Assembly: GCA_900549415.1 (NCBI GenBank)
Contig: URNX01000004.1
Span: 19,967 to 83,966 of the forward strand
Source of the DNA: an uncultured bacterium
GTDB taxonomy: Bacteria > Verrucomicrobiota > Lentisphaeria > Victivallales > UBA1829
Direction of reading: 5' to 3'
DNA length: 64,000 nt
A model generated the notes under the pieces. It was not told the DNA's origin. It ran no database searches and saw only the letters and a list, made by a program, of their open reading frames with translations. Shown one piece after another: positions 8,907 to 63,599 of the stretch. Position 1 is the stretch's first letter; every line of letters begins with the position of its first letter. The translations under genes were made by a program, and so were the position numbers.

Positions 8907-9641
8907 TCAGCGCAGTTCGGAGGTGTAATACCATTGCGCTTTCACCGTGTCGCTTCCGTGAACTCCGGTGTTGGAGAGGGCGGCCGTGTGACCGTCGTAA
9001 TAGAGCATGTTCAGCCGCTGCTGATGACGGTACGTGGCGCTGTTGTAGTGTCCGGATGCGCCGGTTTCGCCGTACTGCAGCCAGCGGGCGTAGTCGCTGT
9101 TGTCGTAATTCAGCAGAGCCGCCATGCCGTCCATGAACTGAAAGTGTTTGGAAGCGTTCCGCATTTTTGCCAGACGGAAGGTGAGAAGCGAACCATTTGT
9201 GTTGAGATCGGCGGCATTCGCTCCGGAGTTGATTCCGTAGCTGTGGTTGATCTGCAGTGAGGTTCCTTTCTTGGTCGGACAGCAGAGCGCGGCCCAGTTG
9301 AACACGGTCGGAGTTTTCTTCTTGACGTTCAGGTATGGCGGCATGGAATTCTGCCAGACACATTCGTCTCCGACTTTTGCTGCGGAAGAGAGGTTGATGA
9401 CATATCCGTCGTAGTCGTTTGAGTATGCCGCCGACGCCGTGCCGAACTGTTTGAGGTTGCTGAGACAGGAGATGGCGCGTCCTTTTTCTCTTGCCGAGTT
9501 CAGCGCGGGCAGGAGCATCCCGGCGAGGATCGCGATGATCGCGATCGTTACCAGGAGCTCTATGAGCGTAAATCTGCGGGATCCCCGCTTGAAATGAAAT
9601 ATGAAACGGGAAATGTTTCTTCTGTTCTGATGAGATTTCAT
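8907..9641 (-). CDS. Prepilin-type N-terminal domain / H-X9-DG family protein (pseudopilin-like), copy A
   Basis: The N-terminus is ...[39 protein letters not shown]. The C-terminal H-X9-DG motif is [12 protein letters not shown]. Confidence 0.85.
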
Positions 9642-9727
9642 AGTGTTGTTTTCCTTTCAATTCCTGTTTTTGTCTGATGTCTGTTCTGCCGTTCCGTTTG
9701 ATCTTTCTGAAATAAGGAATGTTATTT

Positions 9728-9762
9728 CATATTCCATATTCCATATTTCATATTTTCTATTT
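9728..9762. repeat. Tandem heptamer CATATT[C/T] x4 plus one degenerate copy
   Basis: catattc catattc catattt catattt tctattt read directly. The repeat abuts the GH38 stop codon (9764-9766). Confidence 0.8.
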
Positions 9763-9763
9763 C

Positions 9764-12271
9764 TCAATGCGTTCTCCTCCGTATGATTGTTTTTATTTCA
9801 AATGGTTTGAAAACGAGCGGGTTCTGCGCGGGGACGGGATTGCGTTCCATGAGATCTGTTTCGAGCCATTCGCCTTCGGGAAGCGCAAGCCGTTCCGGAA
9901 TGCCGCTGGTCTCGAACAGCCGGATTGCAATGTCATCCGACTCTTCCGCCGGCTTGACGGCGCAGCCGATGATTCCGGTTCCCGTGGTATCGGGAAGAGC
10001 GGAAACGGCAGGTTTGGTTTCTCCGGCGGCACAGCGTCCGATTCCGACCGGATAGAGCGGGGCGTTGAGTTCGAATCCGCATTGCGGAACGAGTCCGGGG
10101 CGAATCCGGTAGCGGCAGGTGTACTCTCCGTCGGGCGGACGCTGAAGCGCTTTCTGCGAGCCGTCGGGGAGAATTTCCACGCCGCCGCTGCAGTAGCCGA
10201 TTCCGCGGACCATGCAGGCGCGGACGGCATCTTTTTTGAATTCCCAGAGCCGGTGGTCGCATCCGATGGTGGTGAACTTTCCTTCCCGTCCGAAGGCGAT
10301 CCATTGTGCGGCGAGACGGAGATGTTCGATTTCGTGATCCGGCTGGTTCCCGCGCTCCGGAGTGACAATGTCGCTGAAGTTGAGTCCGGCTTTGTAAACC
10401 GTGTCGGGATAGCGGACTTTGCCGAAGGGAACACCGTATTCGATTTCATGCGGTTCCGCATCGGGATAGGGAAAACTCTGGACAAGGCGGACGTAATTTC
10501 CGCATTCCCAGTGAACCGTGTTTTCAATTTCGAGTTCGGGGAGCCCTGCGGGAAGGGTTATTTTCTGTTCAAACGGCAATCCGTACACGGATCCGCGGAT
10601 GACGAAGCGGCAGACGACGGGTGTGTGTTCCGCGATTTCAATGCTGTTCGCAACTGCGGGGACGACGCGTCCGGTGCGCGGCATGTTGCAGATGTAGTCG
10701 CCCCGTATCTCTTCGATTCCGGAAATTTCGGCGTCGCGGAAGAGACAGCGTTCCTCCTGCTTGCTGAAGAGGGAGAGCCGCCCGGTTGCGCGGTCGATTT
10801 CCAGACGCAGGAATTCGTTTTCCGCAGAGAGCTTTCCGAGCGGCTGATTCGCCCAGTTCCGTTCCGTGTCCTTGCTGTCGGCAATGACAAACGGGTCGGG
10901 CTGCCGCGCCGGCTTTGCCAGTTCAAGATAATAGGCGCGCGGGGCGAACGCGGGAACTTCCGCTTTGAATTCGACTTCAAAGGAGTCGGCGGAGCCGTGG
11001 AGCCAGCGCACGAGACGGAACGGAATTTCGTTTCCGGCGTCGTCGACGACCCGGTAATTCTGCGCATGGAGTTCCGGATGGCGGATGATGCCGGGACCGT
11101 AGACCGAAGTTCTTGCGCGAACCAGTTCGGAACGTTTCCAGGAGAGGCGGTTGAAGATGACCATCGGGAAGCAGTTTTTGCGCGGTGCTGTTGTTCGGGC
11201 GGCGATCCGCATCGCCAGTTCCCTTGCCGTGCGTTCCGCGGTGAGCCGGGCGAAACGTTTGAGATCGAGTTTTTCCCGGTCGGCGGGCTCTCCTCCGGTT
11301 CCGTTCTGGTTGTGATCCATGGCGTCAAGCAGAGCGTCCCATGCTGTTTTCATCCGTTCGCGCGGGAAGAACTGCGGATTGAGCGCGCCGAAGAATTCCG
11401 CCTGCAGCATGGCGTTTTCGGCGGGAAGGTCGAGCGGCCAGAGATCCGGCCAGCTGCTTTCGACGTTGGGCCAGAGCGACGGGATTTCACCGCTGACCTG
11501 CCGTGCGTTTGCGGGGAACTCCCGCGAAAAATACTTTGCCGGCGTCAGAAAATGGAACGGGCGGTGTCCCTCCTCATTCCAGCGGCGGAAGTTTTCGACG
11601 GCGTTTTCATTGAGAAGATAGAGATCGGTTCCGAACTGGCAGAGCTGGGGATAATCGACACCGCCGAAAATTTCTTCGATTTCTTTTTCGTTTTCGCACA
11701 TCTGCGCATAGTCTGCCGCGTCATGGAAGAGACGGCGGCAGCGTCCGTAGTGAATCGGCGCATAGGCCTTGATGCCGGTTCCGTCCGGAGCGATGTAAAG
11801 AATGCGGTCGGTGTGCGGCGGGAGCCCGTGGGAGAGGAACAGTCCGGAGAATCCGGATTTTGCGGCGATCTGCGGCATCTGCGGCGTGATTCCGGGAATG
11901 TCGGAAAGCGTGGCGGTTTTGCCGGAAGCCCCGAAAAATTTTTCGCAGAACTTGCGTCCGCTGAGAAAGTTGCGGACGATGGTTTCGCCGGAGGGCAGCT
12001 GTGTGTAGAGAATGGCGCGCATGGGAATGACTTCGAGACGTCCTTCTGATTCGAACTTCCGGAGCTTTTCACACTCTTCCGGACAGGCGTCGGCGAAATA
12101 TTCGAGGAAGTTCACGGCTTCGATCATGAAATGGAAGCTGCTGTGTTTTTCCAGAAGCCTCAGTGCGTTCTGGATGATTTCCGCACCTCGCGAAAGACAC
12201 TCTTCGCGGGAGCCTGCCCAGAAGAGGTCGAGATGCGCAAACGGTATGATGAAAACTGCTTTTTTCTGCAT
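9764..12271 (-). CDS. Glycoside hydrolase family 38 (alpha-mannosidase-like)
   Basis: 835 aa. The N-terminus FIIPFAHLDLFWAG matches the GH38 HxDxxW metal-site block. No signal peptide. Confidence 0.75.
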   Translation of the reverse strand: MQKKAVFIIPFAHLDLFWAGSREECLSRGAEIIQNALRLLEKHSSFHFMIEAVNFLEYFADACPEECEKLRKFESEGRLEVIPMRAILYTQLPSGETIVRNFLSGRKFCEKFFGASGKTATLSDIPGITPQMPQIAAKSGFSGLFLSHGLPPHTDRILYIAPDGTGIKAYAPIHYGRCRRLFHDAADYAQMCENEKEIEEIFGGVDYPQLCQFGTDLYLLNENAVENFRRWNEEGHRPFHFLTPAKYFSREFPANARQVSGEIPSLWPNVESSWPDLWPLDLPAENAMLQAEFFGALNPQFFPRERMKTAWDALLDAMDHNQNGTGGEPADREKLDLKRFARLTAERTARELAMRIAARTTAPRKNCFPMVIFNRLSWKRSELVRARTSVYGPGIIRHPELHAQNYRVVDDAGNEIPFRLVRWLHGSADSFEVEFKAEVPAFAPRAYYLELAKPARQPDPFVIADSKDTERNWANQPLGKLSAENEFLRLEIDRATGRLSLFSKQEERCLFRDAEISGIEEIRGDYICNMPRTGRVVPAVANSIEIAEHTPVVCRFVIRGSVYGLPFEQKITLPAGLPELEIENTVHWECGNYVRLVQSFPYPDAEPHEIEYGVPFGKVRYPDTVYKAGLNFSDIVTPERGNQPDHEIEHLRLAAQWIAFGREGKFTTIGCDHRLWEFKKDAVRACMVRGIGYCSGGVEILPDGSQKALQRPPDGEYTCRYRIRPGLVPQCGFELNAPLYPVGIGRCAAGETKPAVSALPDTTGTGIIGCAVKPAEESDDIAIRLFETSGIPERLALPEGEWLETDLMERNPVPAQNPLVFKPFEIKTIIRRRTH

Positions 12272-12382: not shown

Positions 12383-13114
12383 TCAGTAGTGTCTGGAAAT
12401 CTGTGCGGCGAGCGCACAGAGCAGCCGGGAGATTTCGGGCGTGCAGGAGGCGTGCGGCATGAAGGAGCCGAGACAGCCGATGGTTTCGCCTTCGAAGGAA
12501 ACGGGACAGCAGATGACCGTCTTGTCAATTTTCCGGTTTTCCAGGACGGTGCATTCTTCCTGAGCGATCTGCTTCATCTTTTCGAGGAACTCTGTTTCGC
12601 TGATTTCTCCCCAGAATGAGGGGAGGGGATATTTGCGGCAGAACTTCAGCTGTTTTGCGCGGCTTGCTCGGGCGACGAGACAGATGCCGGAAAGGGAGTC
12701 GAACGGGTTCTCTTCGGTCGGGAAGTGCCAGCGCAGCCCCGGATCCGCCTCTTTTGCCCGGATGCGGCAGACGATGTGCTTGTAGTATCCGCGGAGGACG
12801 GAGAAGCTGATGTATTCGCCGACGGTTTCCGCGTATTTTTTCAGATACGGCTGGACGAGCGGCCGGAGATCGTCGAATTCCCGGTAGCCGCCGGAGAGCT
12901 GAAGAAATTTTTCTCCGAGAACATAGCCGCTTTTTCTGCCGACGTTTTCGAGATAGCCGAGCACGGTCATTGTGCGGACAATTTTGGAAAGAGTCTGTAT
13001 TTTGAGTCCGGTCTCTTTCGCCAGTTCCCCGACGGTGTGGGGGCGGCTGGTGTCCAGTGCGATTCCTTCAAGGATTTTGAATGCGCGTTCAATCACCTGT
13101 ATTCTGTCGTTCAT
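12383..13114 (-). CDS. IclR family transcriptional regulator
   Basis: N-terminal wHTH (VIERAFKILEGIA...HTVGELAKETGLKIQTLSKIVRTMTVLGYL) and an IclR-type effector domain. Confidence 0.85.
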   Translation of the reverse strand: MNDRIQVIERAFKILEGIALDTSRPHTVGELAKETGLKIQTLSKIVRTMTVLGYLENVGRKSGYVLGEKFLQLSGGYREFDDLRPLVQPYLKKYAETVGEYISFSVLRGYYKHIVCRIRAKEADPGLRWHFPTEENPFDSLSGICLVARASRAKQLKFCRKYPLPSFWGEISETEFLEKMKQIAQEECTVLENRKIDKTVICCPVSFEGETIGCLGSFMPHASCTPEISRLLCALAAQISRHY

Positions 13115-13289: not shown

Positions 13290-15302
13290 ATGAGACATTC
13301 CGTTCACCGATCCGCAGCATTTCTGCTGCTGCTGACTCTCCTGACTTCCGGTCTGTGCGCCGGAGAAAAACTCCTGCTCGGAATCTATCCCGACATGCGG
13401 ACTTTCAAGCTGGAGCGCCCCGTCGGCTTCCAGCCTCTGAAGATGAGCGACCTGAAGGTCAATCCCGACCGCATCCGCGCCCTCGGCGAATTGCGCGCCG
13501 TCCCGTATACCACGGAGCAGCTGGTTCAGGCGGCGAACTTTTTCCGTGATGTTCCAGCCGGACGCGACACGTGGCGGCGCCAGAATACCGCGCATGTCCT
13601 GAAATATGTCAATTCCTGGAGTCTTCCGCCTGCGAATCTCCCCGCGTACCAGCTCCGCTGGCTGGGGCTGGAGCGCATCGCGGAGACCTGGCTCTTCACG
13701 GGGAACCCGCAGATCGGGAAATTCGTGCACGATTACGCCGTTCACGGCATGACGCTCGACCGCTGGTTCTGGATGGGACAGACCTATCGGAACTGGCTGA
13801 AAGACGACGTCAAGAAGCGTTATGCCGACCTCAACACGCTTCCGTTCGCCCGGATTCTGAACCTCCTGCTCATCCGCTGCCGCGACCTCTTCTCCGCGGA
13901 GGAAATCGCGCGGATGGAGGCGAAGTACCGCGAGTTCGTTCTGGAATCCGCATACGAGGATCTTCAGCGGCGCCGGAAGTGGCAGGCGAACAACTGGACC
14001 GCCATTCTGAGCGGAGCTCTGCTGCTTTCCGCAAAGTATTTCAACGATACGGAAAAAGCCGCTTTCGCCGTGGAGACTCTGACTAACTACTTCCAGTCCA
14101 GTTTTGAGCCTGACGGAAGCTACGGCGAGGGGGTCGGATACGCCGGATACGCGATGAGCGTTCTTCCGGACGTCCTGCCGTACCTGACCGCGGCGGAGCG
14201 CGAAACGCTTTTCCGGACCTCTCCGCTGCATCTCGTGACGCGCTGGATGGTGCATCATGATTTCTGCAATCCGGAAAAATATGCGCGGATCGCCTTCTGT
14301 GACGACAACAGTTTTGCTCTGCCCCCGGTCGCTGTGATGTACGCGCTTGCGCTGGAATCCGGCGATTCCGCGGCGGCGTATCTCGGTTCGCGCACCAAAT
14401 GGCGCACGCCGTGGTGGAACTGGAATGCGGCAAGCTATCTGCTCGGCAATGGAAAAAATCCGGAAGTGAAGAGTCCGGAAGCTCTGAATCTGTCGCTGAC
14501 CGCGCAGTTCGCTTCCGGAGAACTGATTGCGCGTTCCGGCTGGAAGGCGGGCGACACCGTGTTCGGCTGTTACTTCAACGTCCCGACCAAAGTGAGTGCG
14601 CACAAACGCCGCGAGAGCGGCAATTTCGTGCTCGGATACAACGGCTTCCCGATAGTGGTTCATTCCGGCAACACCAACCTGTACCGCCGCCCGATTCATC
14701 AGCTCTCCATCCGGACCTCCGCCGCGAACACCGTGACCGTCGACGGCGCTGATCAGCTCCCGGTGAAACAGCAGAACTGCGCGACGCTGGAATTCCGCGA
14801 TGAACCGGAGCTGCTTCTGCTCCGCAAGGATATGCGCTCCGCTTATTCCCAGCCGATGAAAACGATGATCCGCACATTCGCCTGGCTCAAAAAACAGAAC
14901 CGGCTGGTTGTGATGGACCAGATGAGCGCCGAAAAGGGAACGTTTGAGTTCCGCGCTCATCTTCACCTCAACAACATGCGTCATGATGCTTCACTGAAAA
15001 AACTGACGGAGAAGAGTTTTCATTACGTCCACCCGAAAGCGGAACTCCGGATTCAGACGAATGCTCCGTGCACGGTTTCCAGCGGTTATACGGTTTCGGA
15101 CATCGGAAGCATCTGGAATGAGAAGCTCCAGCAGGCGGAAGCCGACAAGGGCAATGCCTTCGTCCTTTCGTACGGTCCCGCGGGAAAATGCGCTTCCGCC
15201 GCATTTTTTGCTGTGCTCGGCAAAAATGCCGCATCCGTCAAGGAGTCGCCGGAAGGAGTGACGGTCGACGGCGTGCTGATTCCATGGTATTCCGGAAAGT
15301 GA
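13290..15302 (+). CDS. Heparinase II/III-like polysaccharide lyase family protein, secreted
   Basis: Signal peptide MRHSVHRSAAFLLLLTLLTSGLCAG. The C-terminal block HKRRESGNFVLGYNGFPIVVHSG...SAANTVTVDG is typical of the Hepar_II_III domain. Confidence 0.7.
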   Translation: MRHSVHRSAAFLLLLTLLTSGLCAGEKLLLGIYPDMRTFKLERPVGFQPLKMSDLKVNPDRIRALGELRAVPYTTEQLVQAANFFRDVPAGRDTWRRQNTAHVLKYVNSWSLPPANLPAYQLRWLGLERIAETWLFTGNPQIGKFVHDYAVHGMTLDRWFWMGQTYRNWLKDDVKKRYADLNTLPFARILNLLLIRCRDLFSAEEIARMEAKYREFVLESAYEDLQRRRKWQANNWTAILSGALLLSAKYFNDTEKAAFAVETLTNYFQSSFEPDGSYGEGVGYAGYAMSVLPDVLPYLTAAERETLFRTSPLHLVTRWMVHHDFCNPEKYARIAFCDDNSFALPPVAVMYALALESGDSAAAYLGSRTKWRTPWWNWNAASYLLGNGKNPEVKSPEALNLSLTAQFASGELIARSGWKAGDTVFGCYFNVPTKVSAHKRRESGNFVLGYNGFPIVVHSGNTNLYRRPIHQLSIRTSAANTVTVDGADQLPVKQQNCATLEFRDEPELLLLRKDMRSAYSQPMKTMIRTFAWLKKQNRLVVMDQMSAEKGTFEFRAHLHLNNMRHDASLKKLTEKSFHYVHPKAELRIQTNAPCTVSSGYTVSDIGSIWNEKLQQAEADKGNAFVLSYGPAGKCASAAFFAVLGKNAASVKESPEGVTVDGVLIPWYSGK

Positions 15303-19401: not shown

Positions 19402-21054
19402 TCACTGTTTGACCGGTTTGCTTTTGGCGGGGCGTCCGGGGGCGTCGGCTGGGGCGTCCCAGTCGCATTGTGCGACAAGCACGAGTTCTGAGAATTTAGT
19501 GGAACTGGATACGCTTGAGAACAGATAGCCGAGGTACGGAATGTCCATGAGGAACGGAACGCCTGTGGCGGATTTGACAACTTCCTGTTTTTTGAGTCCG
19601 CCGATCACAAAACTGTTCTTTCCGTGCGGAAGGCTGACCTCCTGCGTCACGACGCTGTTCGCCGAGATTCTCGGTGTGCCGTTTGATTCAAAACCGAGCA
19701 GACTTGAGTTGTTCAAAGTGATTTTGAACCGTGTTTCATCCAGGTTCACGGAGGCGTTTTCGACGTTCATGGAGAAGCCGAATCCGGTGAATTTTGTGAC
19801 TTCCTGGCGGTTGCCGCGTCCGACGGGAATCTTGTCAGCGTCCTGCTCAAGTTTTCCGATCAGCATGGAGAGCAGTTCATACGGGCCGAGGTCTTTGAGC
19901 GAGTGAGAGGCTGCTGGAACGGAGGTGTCCACATAGAAAATCTGTGTTTTGCGTTCGAGGGTTGCGGGGGTATTGTTGCGGATGAGCAGTTCGCCCGTGT
20001 ACGCGACTTTTGCTTTGCCGATGCTGACGAGAAAATCAATGTAGCGTGAGTTCCATTTCGGGTTGAAATTATAGAAACTTGTCCGTTCGGAACCGGTCTG
20101 TCCGAGAGTTCCGCCGTATGCGGCCGCCCAGTTGTCGCGGTAACGTCCCCCGACGGAGAAGAGGTCAACTCCCTGATTGTTTTTCCACGCCTGGAAGTCG
20201 ATGCCCATTTTATCATCGTTTTCTCTGGTGATTTCGTAGACGGAAATTTTAAGGCGCACTTGCGGGATGGGAACATCGTAGAGCTTCAGCATTTTATCGA
20301 TGTTGGGCATGGTGTAGTTTGTGACGTCGAAGACGAGCCAGTTGAGGTCCGGATCGGCGGCGACGACATCCTGTCCCTGCCAGATTTCAGTGACGTCTGT
20401 GATGTTCATTCCGACGTTTTGGATGAGCTGCATGAGATTCCGTGCGGGTACGAATTTCGGCATATAGATGAAAGTCTGCGTTCCGCTGTTTGCACCCATT
20501 TGCGGTTTGTCGAGCAGCTTCACGAGTGTATCGAATCCCATGCCGTTTTCATGGTCTTTGAACCGGTACTCTTCGGCGCTGATGATGAGAAGCCCGGTTC
20601 CGTCGGCATATTTCAGACACTCGACGGCGGTGTTGCTTCCAAGCTGTGCGGGCGGGGCGTAGGTCGGCTGCGAGCTGACCGGTTCGGCGGAAGGTGCGCC
20701 GACGGTTGCCTGATACGGCATTGCCGCCGTGTTCATCGGGAAAATCTGCTGCATGCTGGTGTTGCCGACCCGTTTCGCCTGCACCATCTGGCGGATGTAG
20801 TCGCGGAGTTCATAGGGGGCTGCGTGTTTGAGCAGATAGCATTTTGTGACGACGCGCGGATCGTTGTTGTCCCGGATGAAATGGACAGTGTCTGTTTCAT
20901 CTTTGACATGAACGTTGAGGATAGCCTCGATCCGGGAGCTGTCGTATCCTCCGCTGTTGTTGAAGTTGGAATCGCGCGGTGTGACGGGCGGCAGATCTGC
21001 CGCATGCACGGTAATAACGGAAAGAAGAAGCGGAATGAGCAGATGTTTTTTCAT
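19402..21054 (-). CDS. Secretin-family outer-membrane channel protein, paralog 1
   Basis: Signal peptide MKKHLLIPLLLSVITVHA. The C-terminal secretin signature is IGGLKKQEVVKSATGVPFLMDIPYLGYLFSS. Confidence 0.8.
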   Translation of the reverse strand: MKKHLLIPLLLSVITVHAADLPPVTPRDSNFNNSGGYDSSRIEAILNVHVKDETDTVHFIRDNNDPRVVTKCYLLKHAAPYELRDYIRQMVQAKRVGNTSMQQIFPMNTAAMPYQATVGAPSAEPVSSQPTYAPPAQLGSNTAVECLKYADGTGLLIISAEEYRFKDHENGMGFDTLVKLLDKPQMGANSGTQTFIYMPKFVPARNLMQLIQNVGMNITDVTEIWQGQDVVAADPDLNWLVFDVTNYTMPNIDKMLKLYDVPIPQVRLKISVYEITRENDDKMGIDFQAWKNNQGVDLFSVGGRYRDNWAAAYGGTLGQTGSERTSFYNFNPKWNSRYIDFLVSIGKAKVAYTGELLIRNNTPATLERKTQIFYVDTSVPAASHSLKDLGPYELLSMLIGKLEQDADKIPVGRGNRQEVTKFTGFGFSMNVENASVNLDETRFKITLNNSSLLGFESNGTPRISANSVVTQEVSLPHGKNSFVIGGLKKQEVVKSATGVPFLMDIPYLGYLFSSVSSSTKFSELVLVAQCDWDAPADAPGRPAKSKPVKQ

Positions 21055-21066
21055 GGTTCTGACTCC

Positions 21067-22485
21067 TTATTTCAGCTTTATGAGTTTTCCGGCTTGCGGA
21101 CTCTGACGGGCGGTATCGGCCATTTCTGCTGTGACCGTCATGCAGACACGGGTTTTCTCCCGGGTTGTCGTGGTAGTGCTGAACAGGTATTTGAGAATCG
21201 GGATTTCAGACAGGAACGGAACGCCGATGGTCTGTTCAACCTCTTCGGATTTATCCCATGCCGCGAGAATTTTTTCGGTGTTCAGTTCGATGGTTGTGTT
21301 TCCGGTGAATTGGCTGGTTTCGATGAGTTCGGTTCCGTAATTGTTCCGTTCAACGGCTCCGGCGACCTGGATGTCGTATCCGAAAAAGAGAGTTCCGGGC
21401 ATCCCCGCATACTGCCCCGGCGCATAGTCCGGGATTGTGAAATCGACTTCCGTCCCTGCGTGCAGGCAGACTGTCGGGGCGAGGATTTTTAGATAGAGCT
21501 GGTTGGTGCCTTCCGGCAGTCCGGAAATGGCGCTCGGGACGACGGCGGTGTAGTCGTTGTTGGTTTTTGTGATGTTCTGGAACTGCGGGTTGAAGAGCAT
21601 GGAGTAGTTTTTCGTATCGGAATTCAGAACGGTCATATCGGCGGAATTGCGGATTTCCGCTTTGCCGTTCTGCTGAAGCAGGCGGATGAAGCTGGCGTCG
21701 AACTGCGGAGCGAAAAAGAATCCGCCGACGGGACCGGACGCTGCTTGAAGAGCCGCGGTTCCGCCCGATGTAATGCTGAAAGAATCCCATGCCGTCTGGA
21801 AGATGTTGAGTCCGGGACCGTTCTTCCATGCGAGATATTCAATGCCCATGTCGCGGAGAGTGCTTTCGCGCACTTCATAAACCTTGAAATGAAGATTGAT
21901 CTGCGGAGCCGGGCGGTCGAGCCAGGCAAGAAACTGGTACATGAATCCGGAATTGGAGGCGTTGTCCTTCCAGTAGATCTGATTGGAATTTTTGTCGTAT
22001 CCGTAGAGGGAACCGTAAGGCCCTTCGTTGATGACAGCGTTGACGGTTACGTTGATGAGATCCTGTCCGGAGCGGTACTTCGGACGATAGACGGCACGAG
22101 TGATTCCGGTTCCGCGGATAATGTCGCCGGGAACTTTGCCGTCGATTTCGACGTTGCGGTCAGCCTTTGCGATGAAGTCGTCGACGTAAGGCATCATGTG
22201 GACGGGACATGTGACCGTCAGAATCTGCTGATTGCTGTTTCCGTAGTCAATGCAGTTGACGGCGGAGTTCATGTTGTACCGTTTGACGATGCTCATGACC
22301 CACGGCATGAGGTCGTTTGCCTGTGTGTACTTGAGGATGTAGATTTTCGAGACCATGTAGTCCTGCGCGTCATCCTGGACGAACCGCAGAGTTCTGGTTC
22401 CGGACGGATTGTCTTCCGCCGCGTCGGCCGGAAATTCCCCGGCGAGCAACGGCAGAACGGAGCATAGAAGCCATGTTTTGTTCAT
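21067..22485 (-). CDS. Secretin-family outer-membrane channel protein, paralog 2
   Basis: C-terminal signature GVPFLSEIPILKYLFSTTTTT. N-terminal blocks are shared with paralog 1 (FVQDDAQDYMVSKIYILKY vs FIRDNNDPRVVTKCYLLKH). It lies 12 bp upstream of paralog 1. Confidence 0.8.
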   Translation of the reverse strand: MNKTWLLCSVLPLLAGEFPADAAEDNPSGTRTLRFVQDDAQDYMVSKIYILKYTQANDLMPWVMSIVKRYNMNSAVNCIDYGNSNQQILTVTCPVHMMPYVDDFIAKADRNVEIDGKVPGDIIRGTGITRAVYRPKYRSGQDLINVTVNAVINEGPYGSLYGYDKNSNQIYWKDNASNSGFMYQFLAWLDRPAPQINLHFKVYEVRESTLRDMGIEYLAWKNGPGLNIFQTAWDSFSITSGGTAALQAASGPVGGFFFAPQFDASFIRLLQQNGKAEIRNSADMTVLNSDTKNYSMLFNPQFQNITKTNNDYTAVVPSAISGLPEGTNQLYLKILAPTVCLHAGTEVDFTIPDYAPGQYAGMPGTLFFGYDIQVAGAVERNNYGTELIETSQFTGNTTIELNTEKILAAWDKSEEVEQTIGVPFLSEIPILKYLFSTTTTTREKTRVCMTVTAEMADTARQSPQAGKLIKLK

Positions 22486-22589
22486 AATAGAATCCCCCCT
22501 TTGATGGAGGGAAGATAATGCCGTTCCGGAGGAAAATCAAACAGGGAACGGCATGGGCGGAAACGTTTGTTTCATGGTTCCATGCGCCG

Positions 22590-22628: not shown

Positions 22629-22648
22629 CATGAAAGTGTCCTTGCGGC

Positions 22649-44258: not shown

Positions 44259-44360
44259 GGTAAAACCTCCTTTTGCGGTTAATATATTCTTCACGCCATT
44301 GAATGTCAATGGTAATTTTCTCTTTTTGATGGGAGAATCGTAACATTCTCCCGTGTTTGT

Positions 44361-46646: not shown

Positions 46647-47582
46647 ATGCAGCAAATCTATTTTGACGACTGTGACGGACAGAATATCTGGATTGATTTC
46701 CGGCGGGAAAACAAATGCGGCGATGTGAATCCTGCGACGATATCGACTGCGGGCGACCGGCGGATTCAGGCGGGAGAGCGGTACTACAAGACACCGGATC
46801 TGCTTCTGCGGATCATCGGCGGGGGGCCGTTCCATATTCTCCAGTACACCCAGCGCGGAAAGGTCCGCTTCATCAACAAACAGCCAGACGGGAGAAAACA
46901 GGAATATGAGGTGGGACCGGAACAGTGTTTTTTCATTACGCCGGATGAGAAGTATGAATTCTACAATCCGGACCAGTGCTTTTACAGCTTCATCTACATC
47001 GGTTTCCGCGGACCGCTTGCGGAGCATGTGTTCAAGCGGATTCTGGAGATCGGGCCTGTGCATCAGCTTTCGCGGAATTCGGAAATTGTGGAGGAATTTC
47101 ATACGCTTTTCCGCCGCGCTCTGCACAACGAACTGAATTTCTGCGAACTCCGCAAAATCGCAACCGTGATGCTGCTGGATCTGGAACGCGACATTTGCGA
47201 CAAGGCGTTGGCAGGTTCGGACGAGTTTTTGCGCGAACTCTCCAACTGGGCAAGCGAAAACATTGCGGAAATGAGCGTGGAAAAACTTGCGGAGCATTGC
47301 CGGATGAGCACAAAATATTTTCAGGCGTACTTCCGGAAACGCTGCGGCATCACTCCGGGAAAATTCCTCAATGACCTGCGTATGAATTACGTGGTCCGCC
47401 TTTTGGAATGCACGGGAATGAAACTCAGCTCGATCGCGGATGCGGCGGGATTTTACGACGCCAGCTATCTGTGCCGCGTCTTCCGTCAGCAGACCGGCAT
47501 CACGCCTGAAGCGTTCCGGAGCGGAGAGCCCGTCAGGAAGGGCGATTTTGTTTTTCAGGGGAAAAATACTATTCTCCCATAG
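46647..47582 (+). CDS. AraC family transcriptional regulator
   Basis: Cupin-like N-terminus and C-terminal HTH (LAEHCRMSTKYFQAYFRKRCGITPGKF...IADAAGFYDASYLCRVFRQQTGITPEAFR). Confidence 0.85.
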   Translation: MQQIYFDDCDGQNIWIDFRRENKCGDVNPATISTAGDRRIQAGERYYKTPDLLLRIIGGGPFHILQYTQRGKVRFINKQPDGRKQEYEVGPEQCFFITPDEKYEFYNPDQCFYSFIYIGFRGPLAEHVFKRILEIGPVHQLSRNSEIVEEFHTLFRRALHNELNFCELRKIATVMLLDLERDICDKALAGSDEFLRELSNWASENIAEMSVEKLAEHCRMSTKYFQAYFRKRCGITPGKFLNDLRMNYVVRLLECTGMKLSSIADAAGFYDASYLCRVFRQQTGITPEAFRSGEPVRKGDFVFQGKNTILP

Positions 47583-50600: not shown

Positions 50601-50830
50601 GAGTTCATCTGCGCGTCATCGGCACGCTCCCGATTCTCTATCAGTGCGGCGAGTATGAGATTGAGATCAGACGCGCGGAAAAACTGCGCTGTTATGCGCT
50701 GAGCCTGACCGGAGAGCGCAAGGAGGAAATCCCGCTCGTCCGCTCCGCCGATGGCTGGAAGTTCGCGCTTGACATGGCGAAACTGAAGCACGGTCCGACT
50801 CCGTTCTTTGAAGTTGTCGCTGAAAAGTAA
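47666..50830 (+). CDS. Large secreted multidomain putative glycoside hydrolase (CBM-like N-terminus plus clan GH-A-like TIM barrel)
   Basis: Signal peptide MKKIALMALMFVSACLAGAG. CBM4/22-like LLANPDFSSGMAHWEVEG. TIM-barrel-like GYNLFRMHGFDEW with a candidate acid/base motif FFFNEHNY. Confidence 0.55.
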   Translation: MKKIALMALMFVSACLAGAGELRNLLANPDFSSGMAHWEVEGKIGTVTPKNGGVELNVQKSRNSGLLKLQQALRNLKVGETYRLYFTVNCEKPQTRPVVISYRMRRKPKNLGFIKWVPLRQGEQKLFVEIVPGLESDNPEDPPVLSFYIGELDGKVTLSEMVLFNLNDIKPVQPPFSEKWTLFGLVDPAVKAFDAIPAELPGIKEKTVKPVAVNAPSSLKESKINLRLEAGATRKRHSDPAMLYNEFESPVDAQIPVGFGADWYMEIHLNGKLVYSTMAEGNQKSPVSASNHLVFLPVKKGKNLLAVKVLAGSEGWKLFWGPVQPPPAPQRFTAKEGYYPIDTAKLAVKKGSALDLSSIIDAPAGKYGRAVLTPEGHIAFEKNSAPQRFFGFSSDVDEKVWKTSSDRDFPFLAAEYARAVRAQGYNLFRMHGFDEWVMTDSREDQKPLPRYLDRWDRLIYEMKQQGIYLQFNIFAFALYVPSQNRFLTTEKRNANKILFLLGEPEIRARFAEVSRKILNHVNPYTKLAWKDDPVFIAMEYYNELGLAVELTRKMENAYPAEYRFLKEKWRGFLREKYAALPKEKNPHSAATMANPRLPVFWDRSQLRVDYDEFWYECMKDAYRFCDQVMRDCGYKGLTLQCPMPALRCAAVSWESVQIVDGHGYHCHPDGGEQPGASVSQVSSIAEAANVFRRRFGQHIYGRPFFFNEHNYCFRNPFQYEKPVALDAYAALNDWDSLAIHSGAVALTNDKRASSFEVANNPVLRAGEFLSSLFFLRRDVAPAKHNVAVALSKNYVFRPGNSANALAPTQSRITLLTKAASLFTDLPRYDRVPQPGGPDMTIAPAGSGEIVWHGWYAAAKETAAADSSLEALVKTMRSRGILPKDNITDLAKQIYQSETGEITMFAKEKKMTVVTPKSEAVALTAGKTEKLNTIDVKRNSVNSLIGLASVDDKALTESGRMVLVLSTRVANTNMQHDPSGVHLRVIGTLPILYQCGEYEIEIRRAEKLRCYALSLTGERKEEIPLVRSADGWKFALDMAKLKHGPTPFFEVVAEK

Positions 50831-58704: not shown

Positions 58705-61700
58705 TTACGGCATCAGCACGAGGTCCATGAAGAGACCGGGACGTTTCGGGGCTTCGCCGATTCCGGGAGTGAGCTGGAGGAAACCGGCGCGTCCGTTTTG
58801 CGTTCCGATGTTGACAAGAACGTTCATGCGCATGGAGGCTCCGGCTTCCAGACGGAACGGACTTACGCTTTGGCGCGGGAACGCAAACTCGTAAACCGTG
58901 CGGTCCGGATAGCGGCGGATGGCGACAGGAACATCCTGGAGGAGACCGATCTCTTTTTCCAAACTGTCATAGGTCGCCGCGGAGGCTTTCGTGCGGAAAA
59001 TCACCGGTTTTCCGCTGACCAGAGCGGAGGCGTACTCGAAGTCGTCGTCCTGGTAATCCTTGACCTCTTTCAGGGCGTTGCGGACCGGATCGAAGGCAAA
59101 CTGAATGCCGTCGCCGAGCCAGAGTCCGGAGACTCCGACGGGGGATTCCACATTGTCCCGCTTGAAGACCGTTACGCCGAGATAGAGATGAGCGTCGTCC
59201 CACATGAGCTGCGCGTTCGCACGGATCGCGTCTTCGGCGGAGGTCCAGGGCTTGAGTCTGGTGCGCAGAGACAGCGGAATCTCCTTTGCCTGAGCGTTCC
59301 AGTCGGAGAGATCATCGTCGATCACCGGAGCTTTTTCCGCTTTTGCGGCGAGGATCGCGCGCAGGTTCCAGCTGAATTTCTTTTCCGCGCCGCTGCCGGT
59401 CCGGACCGTCGCCTGGACGGTGTTGTTCTTCAGAGAGACGGGGGAGGGGAGACGGAATGACACTTCTCCGAATTCTTCGGGAGCAATTGCGGGGAATGAC
59501 TGTTTCCTGCCGAGCGTTTCAACGGTTCCGGCGAGCGGTTTGGTTCCGAGATTGAAAATCCGGACTTTGATTTCCCTCTCCGCAACGACGATGGCGTTTG
59601 CGTCAAAGAGGTCGGTTCCCGCGTTCAAATCGGTCTTCCGGATGGCGGCTGCAAGTTCGGCGGCGGAAAGTTCCGTTTCCAGATAGACCGGGAATTCGTT
59701 CAGCTCGATTTCGCCGCTCTTGATTTCCGTCCCCATGACGTCGTAGACTGCGGCGTTTTTGAGTTCGGCGGGGAGTGGCGTTCGGGTCGGTTTCCCGTTC
59801 CACTTCCAGAGCGCGGCAACGCGTTTGTCACCGCGGTCGAAAATGTAACAGCGGTAATTGAATCCGAGCTTGACGCGTCCCGCGGGTGCGGCGTTTTCCA
59901 GACGGTCTGCGGCGTTTTTGCAGGCGAACATGATCGGCGCAGGTATCGGCTGACGTCCGTTGTCGGGGTTGCCCTGAAGCAGGAAGCCCCAGCCGCAGCC
60001 TTCAAAATCCATGGTGAAAGTGAAGTGATAATACTGCCGGAGACCGTTTCCGAATCCGATCAGCATCATGCGGGTGTTGTAGGCGACGCGCTGACGTTCG
60101 AAATCGGGGATCCGGTTGTTGTCGGGGAAGAGGGCGAACGAGCGTTCGCCGGCTTCGGTCGCGGTGACCGGGAAGTTCGGTTTGTACTTGCCGGCGACTT
60201 TCTGAAGCGTCTGAAGTTCCGGTTCGTAATCGGGGAGTTCGGGGAGCTGACGGTACGGATGTTCCGTGATGACGTCGAGCCCCTTTGCTCCGCCTTTCGC
60301 GAGCATGGAGGAGGTCCACGCAATATCCGTGTGGCAGCTTGCGGGGCCGGCAACTTTCGCATCCGGATCGCCCGCTTTGACCGCTTCGGCGAGTTCGCGG
60401 ATGATGAGTGCATTGACTTCCGGAGTCATCTCGTAATATTTGGAGGGATCGGGATTCTTCATCCGTCCGCCCCAGATGTTGGTTTCATTCAGCATTTCAT
60501 AAATCTGAACTTTGCCGCGGTACTGCGTCGCGAGTCCGTTAAGAGCTTTTTTCCACGCGGTGAAGTCTTTCGGAATCATCGGCCAGGTGGCAAAGCCTTC
60601 CGAGCCGCAGCACATCATGAGGAAGAATCCGTTTTTGTGGAATTCCTCCACATCGCGGAATCCGGTGTTCGGCGTTCTGCGGTAGGTCGACCAGAGACGC
60701 AGCGCGCCGATCCGGAAATCCTTCAGAAGCGGAATGGATTTGTGAATGTTGCTGCTGCCCGGCATGTAGTTGACGCCGATTCGGTGACTCAGCTTTCCGG
60801 GTTTTTCCGCGATTCCGAAGTAAACTCCCGCCTGTTTTCCGCCGACGTTGAACAGCAGGTTCGCCGCGCCGCGCAAATTCTCCGGAGGAGTGACGGAGAC
60901 CGTCCGCTTTGCCGTTCCCTTTGCTTCGACTTTGATTTTTCCCGCGTTTCCTGTCATGACGGTTTTGCCGAAGAAGTCTTTCATCTCCCAGCGGATTTCC
61001 GCGTTTTCCGCTTTGCCCGCGGTATTGCGGAGGGTCAGTTCCGTTTGAACGGGAGTGCCGGGACGATAGTATCCTTTTGGTTCGTCGATTTTTGCGGAGA
61101 GCAGAATTCCGGTTTCCGGAGTGAATTTGCTGTGTCCGCCGATGCTGTACGCGGCGTCGTCAATCCAGATTGTGCCGCCGAGGGAGCTTAGGTGTGGGGA
61201 AACGAAATTCGTTACGCTCGCGTATCCGGTCGCCGGATTGCCGAACATGTATATGCCTTCGGGTTTCTTTCCCCATTCGGGAATGAAGAGTTCGCATCGG
61301 GTCCATTCCGTTCCGACTCTGAACTGCTTTGAGTAAGCCTGTCCGTTGCCGAGGAAGAGTCCGATATCGATCTGCTGGTTCGGTCTTTCACCCTTGACCC
61401 AGCAGGAGAACGAGGCGCTTTTGCCGACGACGAACGGGACCGGATTCAGATTGAAGCGTCCGTAGCTCTTCGGTTCGCGGGTGAGGCGGAAGGAATAGTT
61501 TCCGCTGCGCTTCACCTTGTCGTCGAGCGCGACTTTGAGCTCCTTGTCCCAGAAATGGTTGCGTCCGTCGGAGATGAGATTGTTGTCCGCCATCTTGAGA
61601 AATTCAAAACCGTTGATTCCGGTCGCATACCATCCGCGTTCGGCTCCGCCGTTGAGAATGTGATTGACCGAGGAGTCGAGTTTTTCCTCCTGTTTGACGG

Positions 61701-62229
61701 AGATTTTTGCGGATTTGATTCTGTAGACCGCCGATTTGTGCAGATCCGCGCGGATGCAGATGTTGTTCATATCCTCCGGAGCCGGATGCGTGACGGTGAA
61801 GGTTTCGCTTTCACTGGAGACCGGGAAGGTTTTTGCAAAATAAAAATGTTTGTTTTCCTTTCCGCGGTTGCCTTCGAGATAGATGTTGATTTCTCCGGCA
61901 TCCTGGGCTTCCGCCTGAACAGAGGCGTTCAGCATCTTGCCGCGGAACTCATCCATTTTGTATCTTCGGTAGAAACGGGTGACGATTTTTCGTGCGTTCG
62001 GCTGTTTGAAGAATTCGCGCGCATCAAGAACGAATGCTCCGTTTTCACCGGAGACCTTGAGTGTGCGGATCAGCTCTTTGGGTTCGGTCCCGATGCCGAT
62101 GCTGATGTTCTCTGCGGTTCTGCACCAGATGCTGAGTCCGTTGTTGCCTGTTTCGGTCTTTGTGACGTCCAGCGCATAAACGGACGCTGCAAAGAAAGCG
62201 AACGCAAGTAAAAAAAGTTTTTTCTTCAT
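58705..62229 (-). CDS. Large secreted multidomain glycoside hydrolase-like protein (clan GH-A-like TIM barrel, C-terminal CBM9/DOMON-like domain)
   Basis: Signal peptide MKKKLFLLAFAFFAASVYA. Candidate acid/base motif IYEMLNETNIWGG and nucleophile VTATEAGERSF. The C-terminus DDDLSDWNAQAKEIPL...AQLMWDDAHLYLGVTV is CBM9-like. Confidence 0.65.
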   Translation of the reverse strand: MKKKLFLLAFAFFAASVYALDVTKTETGNNGLSIWCRTAENISIGIGTEPKELIRTLKVSGENGAFVLDAREFFKQPNARKIVTRFYRRYKMDEFRGKMLNASVQAEAQDAGEINIYLEGNRGKENKHFYFAKTFPVSSESETFTVTHPAPEDMNNICIRADLHKSAVYRIKSAKISVKQEEKLDSSVNHILNGGAERGWYATGINGFEFLKMADNNLISDGRNHFWDKELKVALDDKVKRSGNYSFRLTREPKSYGRFNLNPVPFVVGKSASFSCWVKGERPNQQIDIGLFLGNGQAYSKQFRVGTEWTRCELFIPEWGKKPEGIYMFGNPATGYASVTNFVSPHLSSLGGTIWIDDAAYSIGGHSKFTPETGILLSAKIDEPKGYYRPGTPVQTELTLRNTAGKAENAEIRWEMKDFFGKTVMTGNAGKIKVEAKGTAKRTVSVTPPENLRGAANLLFNVGGKQAGVYFGIAEKPGKLSHRIGVNYMPGSSNIHKSIPLLKDFRIGALRLWSTYRRTPNTGFRDVEEFHKNGFFLMMCCGSEGFATWPMIPKDFTAWKKALNGLATQYRGKVQIYEMLNETNIWGGRMKNPDPSKYYEMTPEVNALIIRELAEAVKAGDPDAKVAGPASCHTDIAWTSSMLAKGGAKGLDVITEHPYRQLPELPDYEPELQTLQKVAGKYKPNFPVTATEAGERSFALFPDNNRIPDFERQRVAYNTRMMLIGFGNGLRQYYHFTFTMDFEGCGWGFLLQGNPDNGRQPIPAPIMFACKNAADRLENAAPAGRVKLGFNYRCYIFDRGDKRVAALWKWNGKPTRTPLPAELKNAAVYDVMGTEIKSGEIELNEFPVYLETELSAAELAAAIRKTDLNAGTDLFDANAIVVAEREIKVRIFNLGTKPLAGTVETLGRKQSFPAIAPEEFGEVSFRLPSPVSLKNNTVQATVRTGSGAEKKFSWNLRAILAAKAEKAPVIDDDLSDWNAQAKEIPLSLRTRLKPWTSAEDAIRANAQLMWDDAHLYLGVTVFKRDNVESPVGVSGLWLGDGIQFAFDPVRNALKEVKDYQDDDFEYASALVSGKPVIFRTKASAATYDSLEKEIGLLQDVPVAIRRYPDRTVYEFAFPRQSVSPFRLEAGASMRMNVLVNIGTQNGRAGFLQLTPGIGEAPKRPGLFMDLVLMP

Positions 62230-62240
62230 CTGAAATCCTG

Positions 62241-62786
62241 TTATTTCTGATTGGCGGAAATCGCGGCGTTGAATATGCGGTAAACGGCGGGCTTGTTGAG
62301 ATCAAGACGGAGCGCAATGCCGTTGACGTCTTCCGGAAGCTGTTTGGTATGAACGATTTCCGAACGTCCGGAAACGGCAAACGGCTGAGCGGTGAAATAG
62401 TGTTTTTTCTCTGTTCCGCGGTTGCCTTCGAGATAGAGATTGACGGCGCCGCTTCCCTCTTCCGCCTGAATCTGAACTTTTGCGGAAGTCTCTTTGCCCT
62501 TGAGAGCGGCGATATTGTTCTTGATGTAGAAGCGTGTGACAATTTTTCGTGCGTCCGGCCGCTTGAAGAATTCGCGGGTATCGATCACCAGCGCACCGTC
62601 TGCGGAGGAGACTTTCAATGTGTTGTAAAGAACTTTCGGTTCCGTTCCGATGGAGATGCCGTACCCTTCGGCGGCTCTTCCGGACCAGAATTTGCCGTTG
62701 TCATTGGCTTTGAGATTGTTGACATCGAGAGCCTGTGCGGAGAGTGCTCCGGCGAGCGCGGCGAGAAGGATGAGGGATTTTTTCAT
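62241..62786 (-). CDS. Secreted single-domain protein paralogous to the N-terminal domain of the downstream 1174-aa protein
   Basis: Signal peptide MKKSLILLAALAGALSAQA. Blocks shared with 58705-62229 are SIGTEPK, TLKVS, REFFK.P.ARKIVTRFY, LYLEGNRG.E.KH and AVYRI. Confidence 0.7.
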   Translation of the reverse strand: MKKSLILLAALAGALSAQALDVNNLKANDNGKFWSGRAAEGYGISIGTEPKVLYNTLKVSSADGALVIDTREFFKRPDARKIVTRFYIKNNIAALKGKETSAKVQIQAEEGSGAVNLYLEGNRGTEKKHYFTAQPFAVSGRSEIVHTKQLPEDVNGIALRLDLNKPAVYRIFNAAISANQK

Positions 62787-62813
62787 GATGACTGCCTTTC
62801 GTTTGGGTGTTTG

Positions 62814-63599
62814 TTAAAAGTCAAGAGCTCCGGTATTGCCCCAGTTGCGGCTTCCGGTCTGTTCCGCCATAAGCCGGTCGCTGTACATTCTGGAATCCGG
62901 GTTCTCGAGCCCTTTCCACGAGCGTTTGCTGACGACATGCCCGTCGAGATAAGCGATGTTCGCATAGAGTGAATGCGGTCTGCCGACCCACAGATGCTGC
63001 GAAGTAAAAACTTCAGCAGAGCCCCCGGCGCTGCCCACACTACTCCCCGAGTATCTATTTGAGGCGGAGGTGTTTAGAAAATCGGAATCAAAGAACATAT
63101 ATGCACGCGACGCCGCTTTGACCATCGTTACTTTTAAGGAGTCCGAACCCCAGGTTTCTGCGGCGACATAACTGAGGCGGGTTGAGGACGTTGAACGGTC
63201 TTCCGGACAGCGGAACGTGTTCCAGGAACCATTGCCGACAGGGGTTCCCGTTGAAGAAGTTTTCGCATTCATATATCTTGTTCCGAATGCGTATGGCCAA
63301 TGGTATTTGATTGAATAGCGATGCCCCGGCACTTCCCAGGAAGAGACCGACAGAATCGGCGGCATGGCATAATCGTTGAAATCGTTTCTGTATGTAGCGG
63401 AAGCTGTGCCGATCTGTTTCAGGTTTGAAGCGCAGGAGATTTTGTGAGCCGTTCTTCTGGCCGAATTCAGCGCGGGCAAGAGCATGACCGCCAGGATTGC
63501 GATGATGGCTATTACCACAAGGAGCTCTATAAGGGTGAATTTACGGATTATCCCTCTGAAACGGAAGGTGTGCGGATGTTGCGGATATTTAATTTTCAT
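62814..63599 (-). CDS. Prepilin-type N-terminal domain / H-X9-DG family protein (pseudopilin-like), copy D
   Basis: N-terminus ...[40 protein letters not shown] and C-terminal [13 protein letters not shown] prefer the ATG at 63599. Confidence 0.85.

Follow-up and report, generated by a model that had tools for sequence, protein, structure and literature searches.

A DUF1559 pilin-like gene family within sugar regulator and carbohydrate-active enzyme operons of Lentisphaerota

In Planctomycetes, proteins containing a DUF1559 (SBP_bac_10) domain have undergone a large expansion and have no assigned function (PMC8567305, PMC10632474, PMC4807772). In a planctomycete, their genes are evenly spread over the genome and frequently located beside genes coding for signal peptides (PMC8567305, PMC10632474, PMC4807772, PMC2754498), Tuwongella proteins combining this domain with N_methyl are mostly recovered in Triton- and SDS-soluble fractions (PMC8567305), and SBP_bac_10 was proposed to define a putative new solute-binding family (PMC2754498). 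In the archaeon Sulfolobus, sugar-binding proteins with class III signal peptides are assembled at the envelope by a type-IV-pilus-like system (BasEF/BasABC) into a structure termed the bindosome (PMC3047682). For Planctomycetes, a fibre-associated uptake of polysaccharide (dextran) involving crateriform fibres was proposed (PMC5394234), envelope fibres were suggested to import large glycans into the periplasm in the Planctomycetes-Verrucomicrobia-Chlamydiae (PVC) superphylum (PMC5394234, PMC12673574), and the periplasmic import of mucin was reported for Akkermansia (cited in PMC13524802). Here, we describe four pilin-like genes of the DUF1559 family in a stretch of 64,000 nucleotides (contig URNX01000004.1, the whole of which we refer to as the window) from an uncultured human-gut metagenome bacterium of the Lentisphaerota, where they are found in operons of sugar regulators and carbohydrate-active enzymes (CAZymes). 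In the literature on DUF1559, H-X9-DG proteins, TIGR04294 and pilins of Lentisphaerota, we found no paper that ties the family to CAZyme operons.

Four pilin-like paralogs of a large PVC family

The window has a GC content of 55.6%. Its genes are found in identical form on gut-metagenome scaffolds of up to 336 kb in ENA and Logan, and their homologs carry names of Lentisphaeria or Victivallaceae. The pilin-like genes, termed A to D, are the following:

8907..9641, minus strand, pilin A with N_methyl and DUF1559 domains, 244 aa, motif H-X9-DGH, residue -1 is R
39651..40436, minus strand, pilin B, 261 aa, motif H-X9-DLH, residue -1 is F, gaps of 18 and 15 bp to its neighbours
42748..43509, minus strand, pilin C, 253 aa, motif H-X9-DGH, residue -1 is R
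62814..63599, minus strand, pilin D, 261 aa, motif H-X9-DGH, residue -1 is K

All four had been called as paralogs in a first-pass annotation, and a six-frame motif scan of the window for FTLIELLV combined with H-X9-D[GL]H returned exactly these four open reading frames (ORFs). Their mutual identity is 29-40%. Conserved positions are restricted to the N-terminal ~65 residues, a pair of cysteines and the C-terminal motif (H, N and D), while the other ~180 residues are strongly divergent. The same H, N and D are near-invariant in an alignment of the family.

In profile searches, TIGR02532 matches all four proteins with 20.6-21.9 bits (cutoff 16.3). The Pfam family N_methyl (PF07963, gathering threshold 21.2) is passed by C with 25.5 bits, with A (21.0), B (20.6) and D (19.3) scoring below. 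Similarly, PF07596 (DUF1559/SBP_bac_10, gathering threshold 23.3 bits) scores above threshold for A (25.1) and C (28.8) and below for D (23.1) and B (16.9), in alignments that cover only the first 30-45 of 268 profile positions; a precomputed PF07596 match is found on many homologs of the pilins. A formal assignment to TIGR04294, the family type that had been named before, is not supported, with A and C reaching 12.5 and 15.0 bits against a cutoff of 19 and B and D giving no hit at E<=10. The pilins do not match the equivalogs of the pseudopilins GspG (23-32 bits, cutoff 88.85) and GspH (20-27 bits, cutoff 80), whose models align to their N-terminal ~55 residues only, and Pfam annotation of the neighbouring genes in the window identifies no gsp genes adjoining them. 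A profile of the family retrieved 41,673 representatives at E<=1e-30 and 234,919 at E<=1e-10 from 1.84 billion cluster representatives, which defines a family of more than 40,000 representatives at 50% identity. Pilins A-D are thus members of the PVC family of N_methyl and DUF1559 ('H-X9-DG') pilin-like proteins. With a local density of about one family gene per 16-35 kb, extrapolation suggests that there are probably hundreds of paralogs per genome, and pilins A, B and D each have a sharply bounded orthologous group.

Conserved linkage to sugar regulators and glycoside hydrolases

For a comparison across genomes, 80 loci of the family were collected from reference genomes, ORFs were called, and the operon partners of the pilin-like genes, defined as genes of at least 120 aa on the same strand within two genes and with a gap below 150 bp, were set against control genes of the same locus. 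The Lentisphaerota sample contains 33 loci that are not derived from the window, with 46 family genes. CAZyme enrichment was judged by size classes, counts of named families and subsets of large proteins. Proteins of at least 700 aa account for 24/65 partners compared to 12/162 controls (odds ratio 7.3, p=2e-7). Their excess is preserved after exclusion of the four loci containing pilin B orthologs (20/57 vs 11/144, p=5e-6) and when controls closer than 3.6 kb to a locus end are left out (10/20 vs 1/30). Regulators with a Peripla_BP_3 domain constitute 9/65 partners and 2/136 controls (p=8e-4), with GntR domains found in 6/65 partners. Among the 25 families listed for partners of at least 450 aa (n=33), 23 are glycoside hydrolase (GH), polysaccharide lyase (PL) or carbohydrate-binding module (CBM) domains, including DUF4838 (four times), GH39 (three times), GH28, GH78, GH5, a GH63-like domain, GH71, GH123, GH2 and HepII. 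The large controls (n=39) are mainly housekeeping proteins with a minority of CAZymes.

The Lentisphaerota loci share a common organization, in which the same-strand upstream neighbours cluster at 338-370 aa and the immediate downstream neighbours have at least 600 aa in 19/27 cases. The typical layout consists of a one-component sugar regulator of ~340-370 aa, the pilin-like gene and a large exported GH/CBM protein, and the regulons often also contain cytoplasmic exo-glycosidases. These partner-versus-control contrasts bear out the view that the pilin-like genes are genuine and non-random parts of regulator and CAZyme operons in Lentisphaerota. Large partners (at least 700 aa) are weakly enriched in the 51 loci sampled from other PVC phyla (9/45 vs 21/246, p=0.03). 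As a separate observation in Verrucomicrobiota and Planctomycetota (L016-L094), the gene directly downstream of a DUF1559 pilin often encodes a protein of 124-190 aa.

The linkage extends to individual subfamilies, as expected if these were dedicated to a substrate or partner, since the A, B and D orthologs retain their partner gene although the surrounding genes are otherwise unrelated. Orthologs of pilin B (42-60% identity) are found in four gene contexts, each followed by the gene of an exported GH5-like protein of ~904 aa. The start and stop codons of the two genes overlap or abut in three of these loci, and in L009 a GH28 gene is placed between the pilin and a 907-aa gene. In case of pilin D, three orthologs (64, 43 and 39% identity) and a further locus (L024) precede full-length homologs of the 1174-aa enzyme found downstream of pilin D in the window (61, 32, 36 and 35% identity), with gaps of 25-29 bp from the pilin D orthologs to the downstream gene and a 182-aa gene retained in one locus. 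Finally, two orthologs of pilin A (61% and 52%) preserve a unit of IclR regulator, GH38 and pilin together with a divergent heparinase-like gene, whereas the genes downstream differ. When pilin pairs from different loci are compared, similar heads share homologous partners in 9/39 cases as opposed to 7/722 pairs. Since this count is dominated by the pilin B group, the three orthogroup cases constitute the stronger evidence.

The ~904-aa partner of the pilin B orthologs carries a weak GH5 signal and is homologous to a 1054-1076-aa protein encoded in the window (E=2e-46). The 904-aa protein showed no homology to the 1174-aa enzyme. Members of this exported family of 900-1076 aa were identified in the window (47666-50830) and in L009 (9365-12088), L011 (7783-10497), L012 (7797-10508), L013 (7771-10485) and L097 (539-3550), often right after a pilin-like gene. 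The family recurs without annotation, and its faint signal of GH5 and clan GH-A (PDB 3pz9, E=3e-4) probably marks a group of glycoside hydrolases not described so far. The modules also cluster, as further pilin-like family members lie 2-7 kb from the queried ones (L099 9126-13097 and 14410-14699; L100 7731-12635; L012 13502-14257). Clustered layouts comprise an AraC gene divergent from a pilin that is followed by a 1064-aa exported protein, a 1000-aa exported protein followed by a pilin and GH28, and a pilin followed by a GH5 cellulase.

The modules A-D of the window contain the following features:

12383..13114, minus strand, IclR-type regulator, first in module A, kept in orthologous loci
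9764..12271, minus strand, GH38 alpha-mannosidase, 835 aa, no signal peptide, catalytic domain from residue 6
8875..8900, minus strand, terminator-like hairpin after pilin A, 10-bp stem with 7 GC, T-run
13290..15302, plus strand, exported Hepar_II_III_C protein (polysaccharide-lyase-like), divergent from IclR, arrangement kept in L099 and L100
42693..42721, minus strand, sigma-70 consensus, 12/12 (TTGACA-17-TATAAT), upstream of LacI
41688..42665, minus strand, LacI-family regulator, first in module B
40455..41639, minus strand, 394-aa protein, no signal peptide, weak match to PD40 beta-propeller repeats
38193..39635, minus strand, GH28, polygalacturonase-type, 480 aa, Sec signal peptide
44361..46487, minus strand, GH36 alpha-galactosidase, 708 aa, no signal peptide
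44281..44309, minus strand, sigma-70-like site, 11/12, between GH36 and the 227-aa gene
43575..44258, minus strand, 227-aa exported protein, Sec signal peptide, no Pfam match
46647..47582, plus strand, AraC-family regulator, transcribed away from GH36 and in the direction of the gene that follows
47666..50830, plus strand, CBM4_9/GH5-like exported protein, 1054 aa (1054-1076)
63789..64000, minus strand, 3' end of an AraC-family regulator with an HTH_18-type C-terminus, upstream of pilin D
62241..62786, minus strand, 181-aa exported protein between pilin D and the 1174-aa gene
58705..62229, minus strand, 1174-aa exported enzyme, GH44-like TIM-barrel at residues 561-641, CBM9-like region at 986-1069

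The distances between these genes agree exactly with the earlier description, with 122 bp between GH38 and pilin A, 18 bp between the 394-aa gene and pilin B, 15 bp between pilin B and GH28, 102 bp between GH36 and the 227-aa gene, 65 bp between the latter and pilin C, 27 bp between pilin D and the 181-aa gene and 11 bp between the 181-aa and the 1174-aa gene. Similarly, the assignments as IclR, GH38, LacI, GH28, GH36 and AraC are borne out by Pfam, the translated end of the AraC gene at the window edge is a typical helix-turn-helix, and the terminator after pilin A is present, with its 10-bp stem and T-run at 8900-8875. Beyond this terminator, a PMI gene is preceded by its own promoter-like site (8850-8822). 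The consensus site upstream of LacI is the likely promoter of module B, and in L009 a GH28 gene likewise adjoins the pilin B ortholog (60% identity). By contrast, the description of the 394-aa protein as a PL22-like propeller is not supported and was dropped, as it shows neither a PL22 match in Pfam nor a sequence match in the PDB, and only the weak PD40 repeat is detected. Other proposals were confirmed in part. Module C has the described gene order and gaps, but a near-consensus promoter separates GH36 from the 227-aa gene, and the latter may form with pilin C a transcript apart from GH36. The AraC regulator of this module is indeed divergent, but on its own strand it is followed by the 1054-1076-aa GH5-like gene. 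For the 1174-aa protein, described as a clan GH-A enzyme with a CBM9, the GH44-like region reaches 25.5 bits (cutoff 25.1), whereas the CBM9 match stays below threshold. The N-terminal ~180 residues of this enzyme have a stand-alone paralog in the 181-aa protein (51% identity, E=2e-48), which is a candidate docking or binding module; the same small gene occurs in L097 but not in L095.

Among the ~52 genes of the window, we found no ABC, MFS, PTS, TonB-dependent or other polytopic transporter, with YdjM being the sole protein with multiple transmembrane segments, and no Pfam families of a SusC/SusD pair. The analogy to a polysaccharide utilization locus (PUL) with a different component in the position of SusC/D is thus a fair one, as the operons contain neither a transporter nor this pair. 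Scans of the window for Rfam families and tRNAs were empty. Among other features, GH127 (34625-36086) and AP_endonuc_2 (36383-37242) both appear as two separate ORFs in the window, L001 and L004 and as intact genes (545 and 327 aa) in L002, L003, L005 and L006; the interruptions are strain-level frameshifts, pseudogenes or assembly errors. An island at 22572-29401 encodes Fic, MarR, lipocalin, ADP-ribosylglycohydrolase and phage-portal-like DUF4055 proteins, with a second Fic gene at 387-1436, and may be a prophage remnant or a defence/toxin island unrelated to the pilin modules.

Sec signals are found in the GH28, 227-aa, 181-aa, 1174-aa, 1054-aa and heparinase-like proteins, and no signal peptide is present in GH38, PMI, GH36, the 394-aa protein, GH78 and GH2. 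This distribution bears on an explanation by which the pilins would serve as dedicated adaptors for secretion or tethering that recruit the co-encoded exported enzyme to a type II secretion system (T2SS) or anchor it on a pseudopilus or the cell surface, without a direct role in glycan handling. Such adaptors would be expected to have large enzymes with Sec signals directly downstream as most conserved partners and to be co-inherited, subfamily by subfamily, with given enzyme families, as we observe. The codon overlap or abutment in pilin B orthologs and the 25-29 bp gaps in those of pilin D suggest stoichiometric co-production, the stand-alone N-terminal domain encoded between pilin D and its enzyme would fit a docking module, and two secretin genes are located nearby. 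Conversely, pilin A is kept beside a cytoplasmic GH38 under IclR, in a same-strand unit that does not contain an exported protein, with the exported heparinase-like gene being divergent from it, and module B also holds a cytoplasmic protein. Because GH38 is cytoplasmic, a pure adaptor role in secretion fails for the A subfamily, whereas it is plausible for B and D. Secretion of the co-encoded enzymes as a general role, which had been put forward before, is contradicted by GH38 as the conserved partner of A and by GH36 and the 394-aa protein, whose lack of signal peptides favours a substrate-level over an enzyme-secretion logic. As an account of the entire family, we consider the adaptor role possible but on balance doubtful.

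A proposed role as regulon-specific filament subunits

The N-termini of the pilins are strikingly uniform. In 56 sequences of paralogs and orthologs, the phenylalanine at position +1 (F+1) and the glutamate at +5 (E+5) are invariant and the N-terminal part of the first helix (alpha-1N) is almost identical, while leader and head vary freely. The AlphaFold2 (AF2) model of the full-length protein (pLDDT 86, pTM 0.82) shows a 51-residue helix at residues 10-60, which in Foldseek searches aligns to FimA, PilE and Myxococcus PilA (full-length pilin 3sok, prob 0.93). We tentatively propose, as a reading that we favour without regarding it as established, that the pilin-like proteins each serve one regulon as subunits of a common type-4-filament machine, with a function at the envelope in capturing glycans or docking enzymes. 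Each protein would be induced with one regulon and plug its N-terminal helix, with F+1, E+5 and the hydrophobic alpha-1, into one machine of the T2SS or type IV pilus (T4P) type; a single shared machine is suggested because alpha-1N is near-identical across paralogs. The variable head of ~200 residues would recognise the cognate glycan, the co-encoded exported enzyme, or both, so that the induced subunits would confer substrate specificity on a periplasm-spanning or surface pseudopilus, which would capture the glycan for transfer either to docked enzymes or to the periplasm. Such subunits would occupy the functional slot of SusC/D in PULs of Bacteroidota and of the sugar-binding proteins with class III signals in the Sulfolobus bindosome.

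A number of observations weigh against this proposal, the first of which concern the linkage itself. In the window alone, the adjacency to CAZymes does not exceed what chance would give (permutation p=0.44 within one gene and p=0.12 within two genes on either side), and since these values are not significant, the window cannot carry the claim, which is instead borne by the independent Lentisphaerota loci. In their analysis, the ORF calling was crude with some miscalls left, and the Pfam tallies refer to the 25 families listed. It could thus be argued that there is no functional link at all and that adjacency results from chance or the hitch-hiking of duplicating cassettes of a numerous family in genomes rich in CAZymes and regulators. 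Besides the permutation, it speaks for this view that 10 CAZymes and 8 sugar-type regulators account for 18 of the 52 window genes and that some CAZymes are also among the control genes near pilins. It is difficult to reconcile with the partner-versus-control contrasts over 29-33 independent loci, the stereotyped gene order and size classes and the three subfamily-partner pairs that are kept at 39-64% identity with their flanks replaced. This explanation is therefore disfavoured and in our view very improbable. Outside Lentisphaerota, the partners in Verrucomicrobiota and Planctomycetota are heterogeneous (sulfatase, LTD, beta-helix, PQQ dehydrogenase, GH30 and others), and for that reason our proposal may hold for Lentisphaerota only.

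The transcriptional organization adds to these points, as the gap between GH38 and the pilin contains a perfect TTGACA-N17-TATAAT in L099 (6923-7000) and L100 (6916-7000), and a pilin A-type gene may be separately transcribed. The corresponding gap of the window (9642-9763) contains four direct repeats of the ATATGRA type, which might be an operator, and no consensus promoter. Co-transcription of the pilin with the upstream enzyme is thus not guaranteed, and since signals for own promoters precede the pilin A orthologs and the pair of 227-aa gene and pilin C, co-regulation is the safer claim.

The processing signal is another point of concern. The codons preceding F+1 are located at the following positions:

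9569-9572, codon before F+1 in pilin A
40412-40415, codon before F+1 in pilin B
43449-43452, codon before F+1 in pilin C
63536-63539, codon before F+1 in pilin D

The canonical glycine at -1 is missing in all four proteins (R, F, R and K), and among the family genes of the collected loci a glycine or alanine is found at this position in 3/47 members of Lentisphaerota, where nearly every residue can occur, compared to 66/67 of other PVC phyla; a glycine is present in 7/119 homologs of pilin B. From this loss one would predict that the prepilin peptidase has changed its specificity or that the proteins are not cleaved. In the latter case, the pilins would not form filaments but remain as uncleaved bitopic proteins in the inner membrane, with the periplasmic DUF1559 domain acting as binding protein, chaperone or scaffold in a manner resembling the bindosome or a solute-binding protein. 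The described residue preferences at -1 would fit this idea, as would the Pfam label SBP_bac_10 with its proposed status as a solute-binding family (PMC2754498) and the recovery of the two-domain proteins of Tuwongella mostly in Triton- and SDS-soluble fractions (PMC8567305). However, F+1 and E+5 are invariant while the residue at -1 and the leader vary, which is expected if F is the mature N-terminus and E+5 serves assembly, and the conservation of alpha-1N goes far beyond the needs of an anchor. Moreover, a solute-binding-protein fold is not matched and the window contains no ABC or other transporter to take over a ligand. We regard a mere membrane anchor as unlikely, although the residue at -1 keeps it a serious rival. 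Because conservation starts exactly at the canonical cleavage site, we infer that processing and assembly may continue with an altered specificity of the peptidase.

The head and the machine are further points where the filament proposal is vulnerable. In the confident AF2 model of the head only (pLDDT 87.7, pTM 0.87), Foldseek finds no match in the PDB (best E=4.9, TM <0.15), with no pilin, pseudopilin, lectin or solute-binding protein among the matches, although the method can miss very divergent pilin heads; the full-length model yields matches to its N-terminal helix only. The suggested lectin-like head is thus not supported, and a solute-binding fold was dropped as candidate for the same reason. 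Since the head matches no known structure, glycan binding by it is pure inference. With respect to the machine, the relevant feature of the window is the following:

19402..22485, minus strand, pair of short and divergent secretin genes in tandem (550 and 472 aa), with a GH78 rhamnosidase gene (17121-19274) next on this strand

These secretins fit no subtype, with all NCBIfam secretin scores far below the cutoffs. No T2SS or T4P genes adjoin them, and Pfam annotation of the window genes identifies no ATPase, platform protein or peptidase of a type-4 filament. The secretins are a possible outer-membrane conduit. Judged from the sequences, cleavage, filament assembly, glycan binding and enzyme binding are all putative.

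In a bolder version of our proposal, which is speculative and which we consider rather doubtful, Lentisphaerota would rely on a modular pseudopilus instead of SusC/D, where hundreds of interchangeable DUF1559 subunits, each with its own sugar regulator, would be processed by a glycine-independent peptidase and share one secretin-bearing machine, while their heads would dock the enzyme and reel the glycan into the periplasm. If true, the archaeal bindosome would have its counterpart in bacteria, and a first general function could be assigned to this family of more than 40,000 representatives.

Comparison with known systems

The novelty of our findings lies in the pilin-like family being a conserved non-catalytic marker of PUL-like loci in Lentisphaerota. 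Proteins with DUF1559 and N_methyl domains belong to the largest paralogous families of PVC bacteria and have no assigned function (PMC10632474, PMC8567305), and how PVC bacteria lacking SusC/D acquire polysaccharides is an open question (PMC5394234, PMC12673574). The linkage to sugar regulators and large exported glycoside hydrolases, conserved among orthologs, joins both problems and renders them testable. From each operon, a substrate can be predicted together with the regulator that senses the inducer, the partner enzyme and the pilin subunit, and the pilin-like genes could be used as locus markers for new CAZyme families, such as the 904-1076-aa GH5-like and the 1174-aa GH44/CBM9-like proteins. 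Human-gut, rumen and marine Lentisphaerota would be candidate sources of such families.

With type IV pilins and T2SS pseudopilins (GspG/H, PilA, ComGC), the window proteins share the class-III-type N-terminus FTLIELLV with E+5, the hydrophobic alpha-1 helix of ~50 residues and a TIGR02532 match above cutoff. They differ by the lack of a glycine at -1, by a DUF1559 head of ~200 residues with two cysteines and the H-X9-D motif that has no structural match, and by their occurrence as single genes scattered in catabolic operons instead of gsp or pil clusters. The DUF1559 proteins of Planctomycetes have the same architecture of N_methyl and SBP_bac_10 domains and number tens to ~100 paralogs per genome (PMC8567305, PMC10632474, PMC4807772, PMC2754498). 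In Planctomycetes and Verrucomicrobiota, a glycine or alanine at -1 is retained (66/67) that is largely lost in Lentisphaerota, and the partners in the loci analysed are heterogeneous and often downstream proteins of 124-190 aa, rather than a regulator and a large CAZyme.

The PULs of Bacteroidota are substrate-specific clusters that similarly combine a sugar regulator with exported endo-acting CAZymes carrying CBMs and downstream exo-glycosidases, and they too are defined by a single conserved non-catalytic marker gene per locus. In the loci described here, this marker is a pilin-like protein, whereas a TonB-dependent transporter and SusD are missing, and the regulators are cytoplasmic one-component proteins of the LacI, GntR-PBP, AraC and IclR types instead of hybrid two-component or ECF/anti-sigma systems. 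The likeness is thus one of architecture and not of membership.

The window bacterium belongs to the same superphylum as the Planctomycetes, for which fibre-associated uptake was proposed, and Akkermansia, for which mucin import was reported. Neither the fibre studies nor the cited passage on Akkermansia describe a role of DUF1559 or regulon-specific pilin subunits. Davey and colleagues are said to have found in 2023 that mucin import in Akkermansia requires pilus-like genes. The bindosome of Sulfolobus is archaeal, and its heads are ABC solute-binding proteins encoded together with ABC transporters, whereas the heads of the window proteins show no match to such a fold and have no transporter nearby. 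With its pilin-type signal on proteins of sugar acquisition, the bindosome nevertheless offers the nearest precedent for the combination of this N-terminus with a regulon-specific head.

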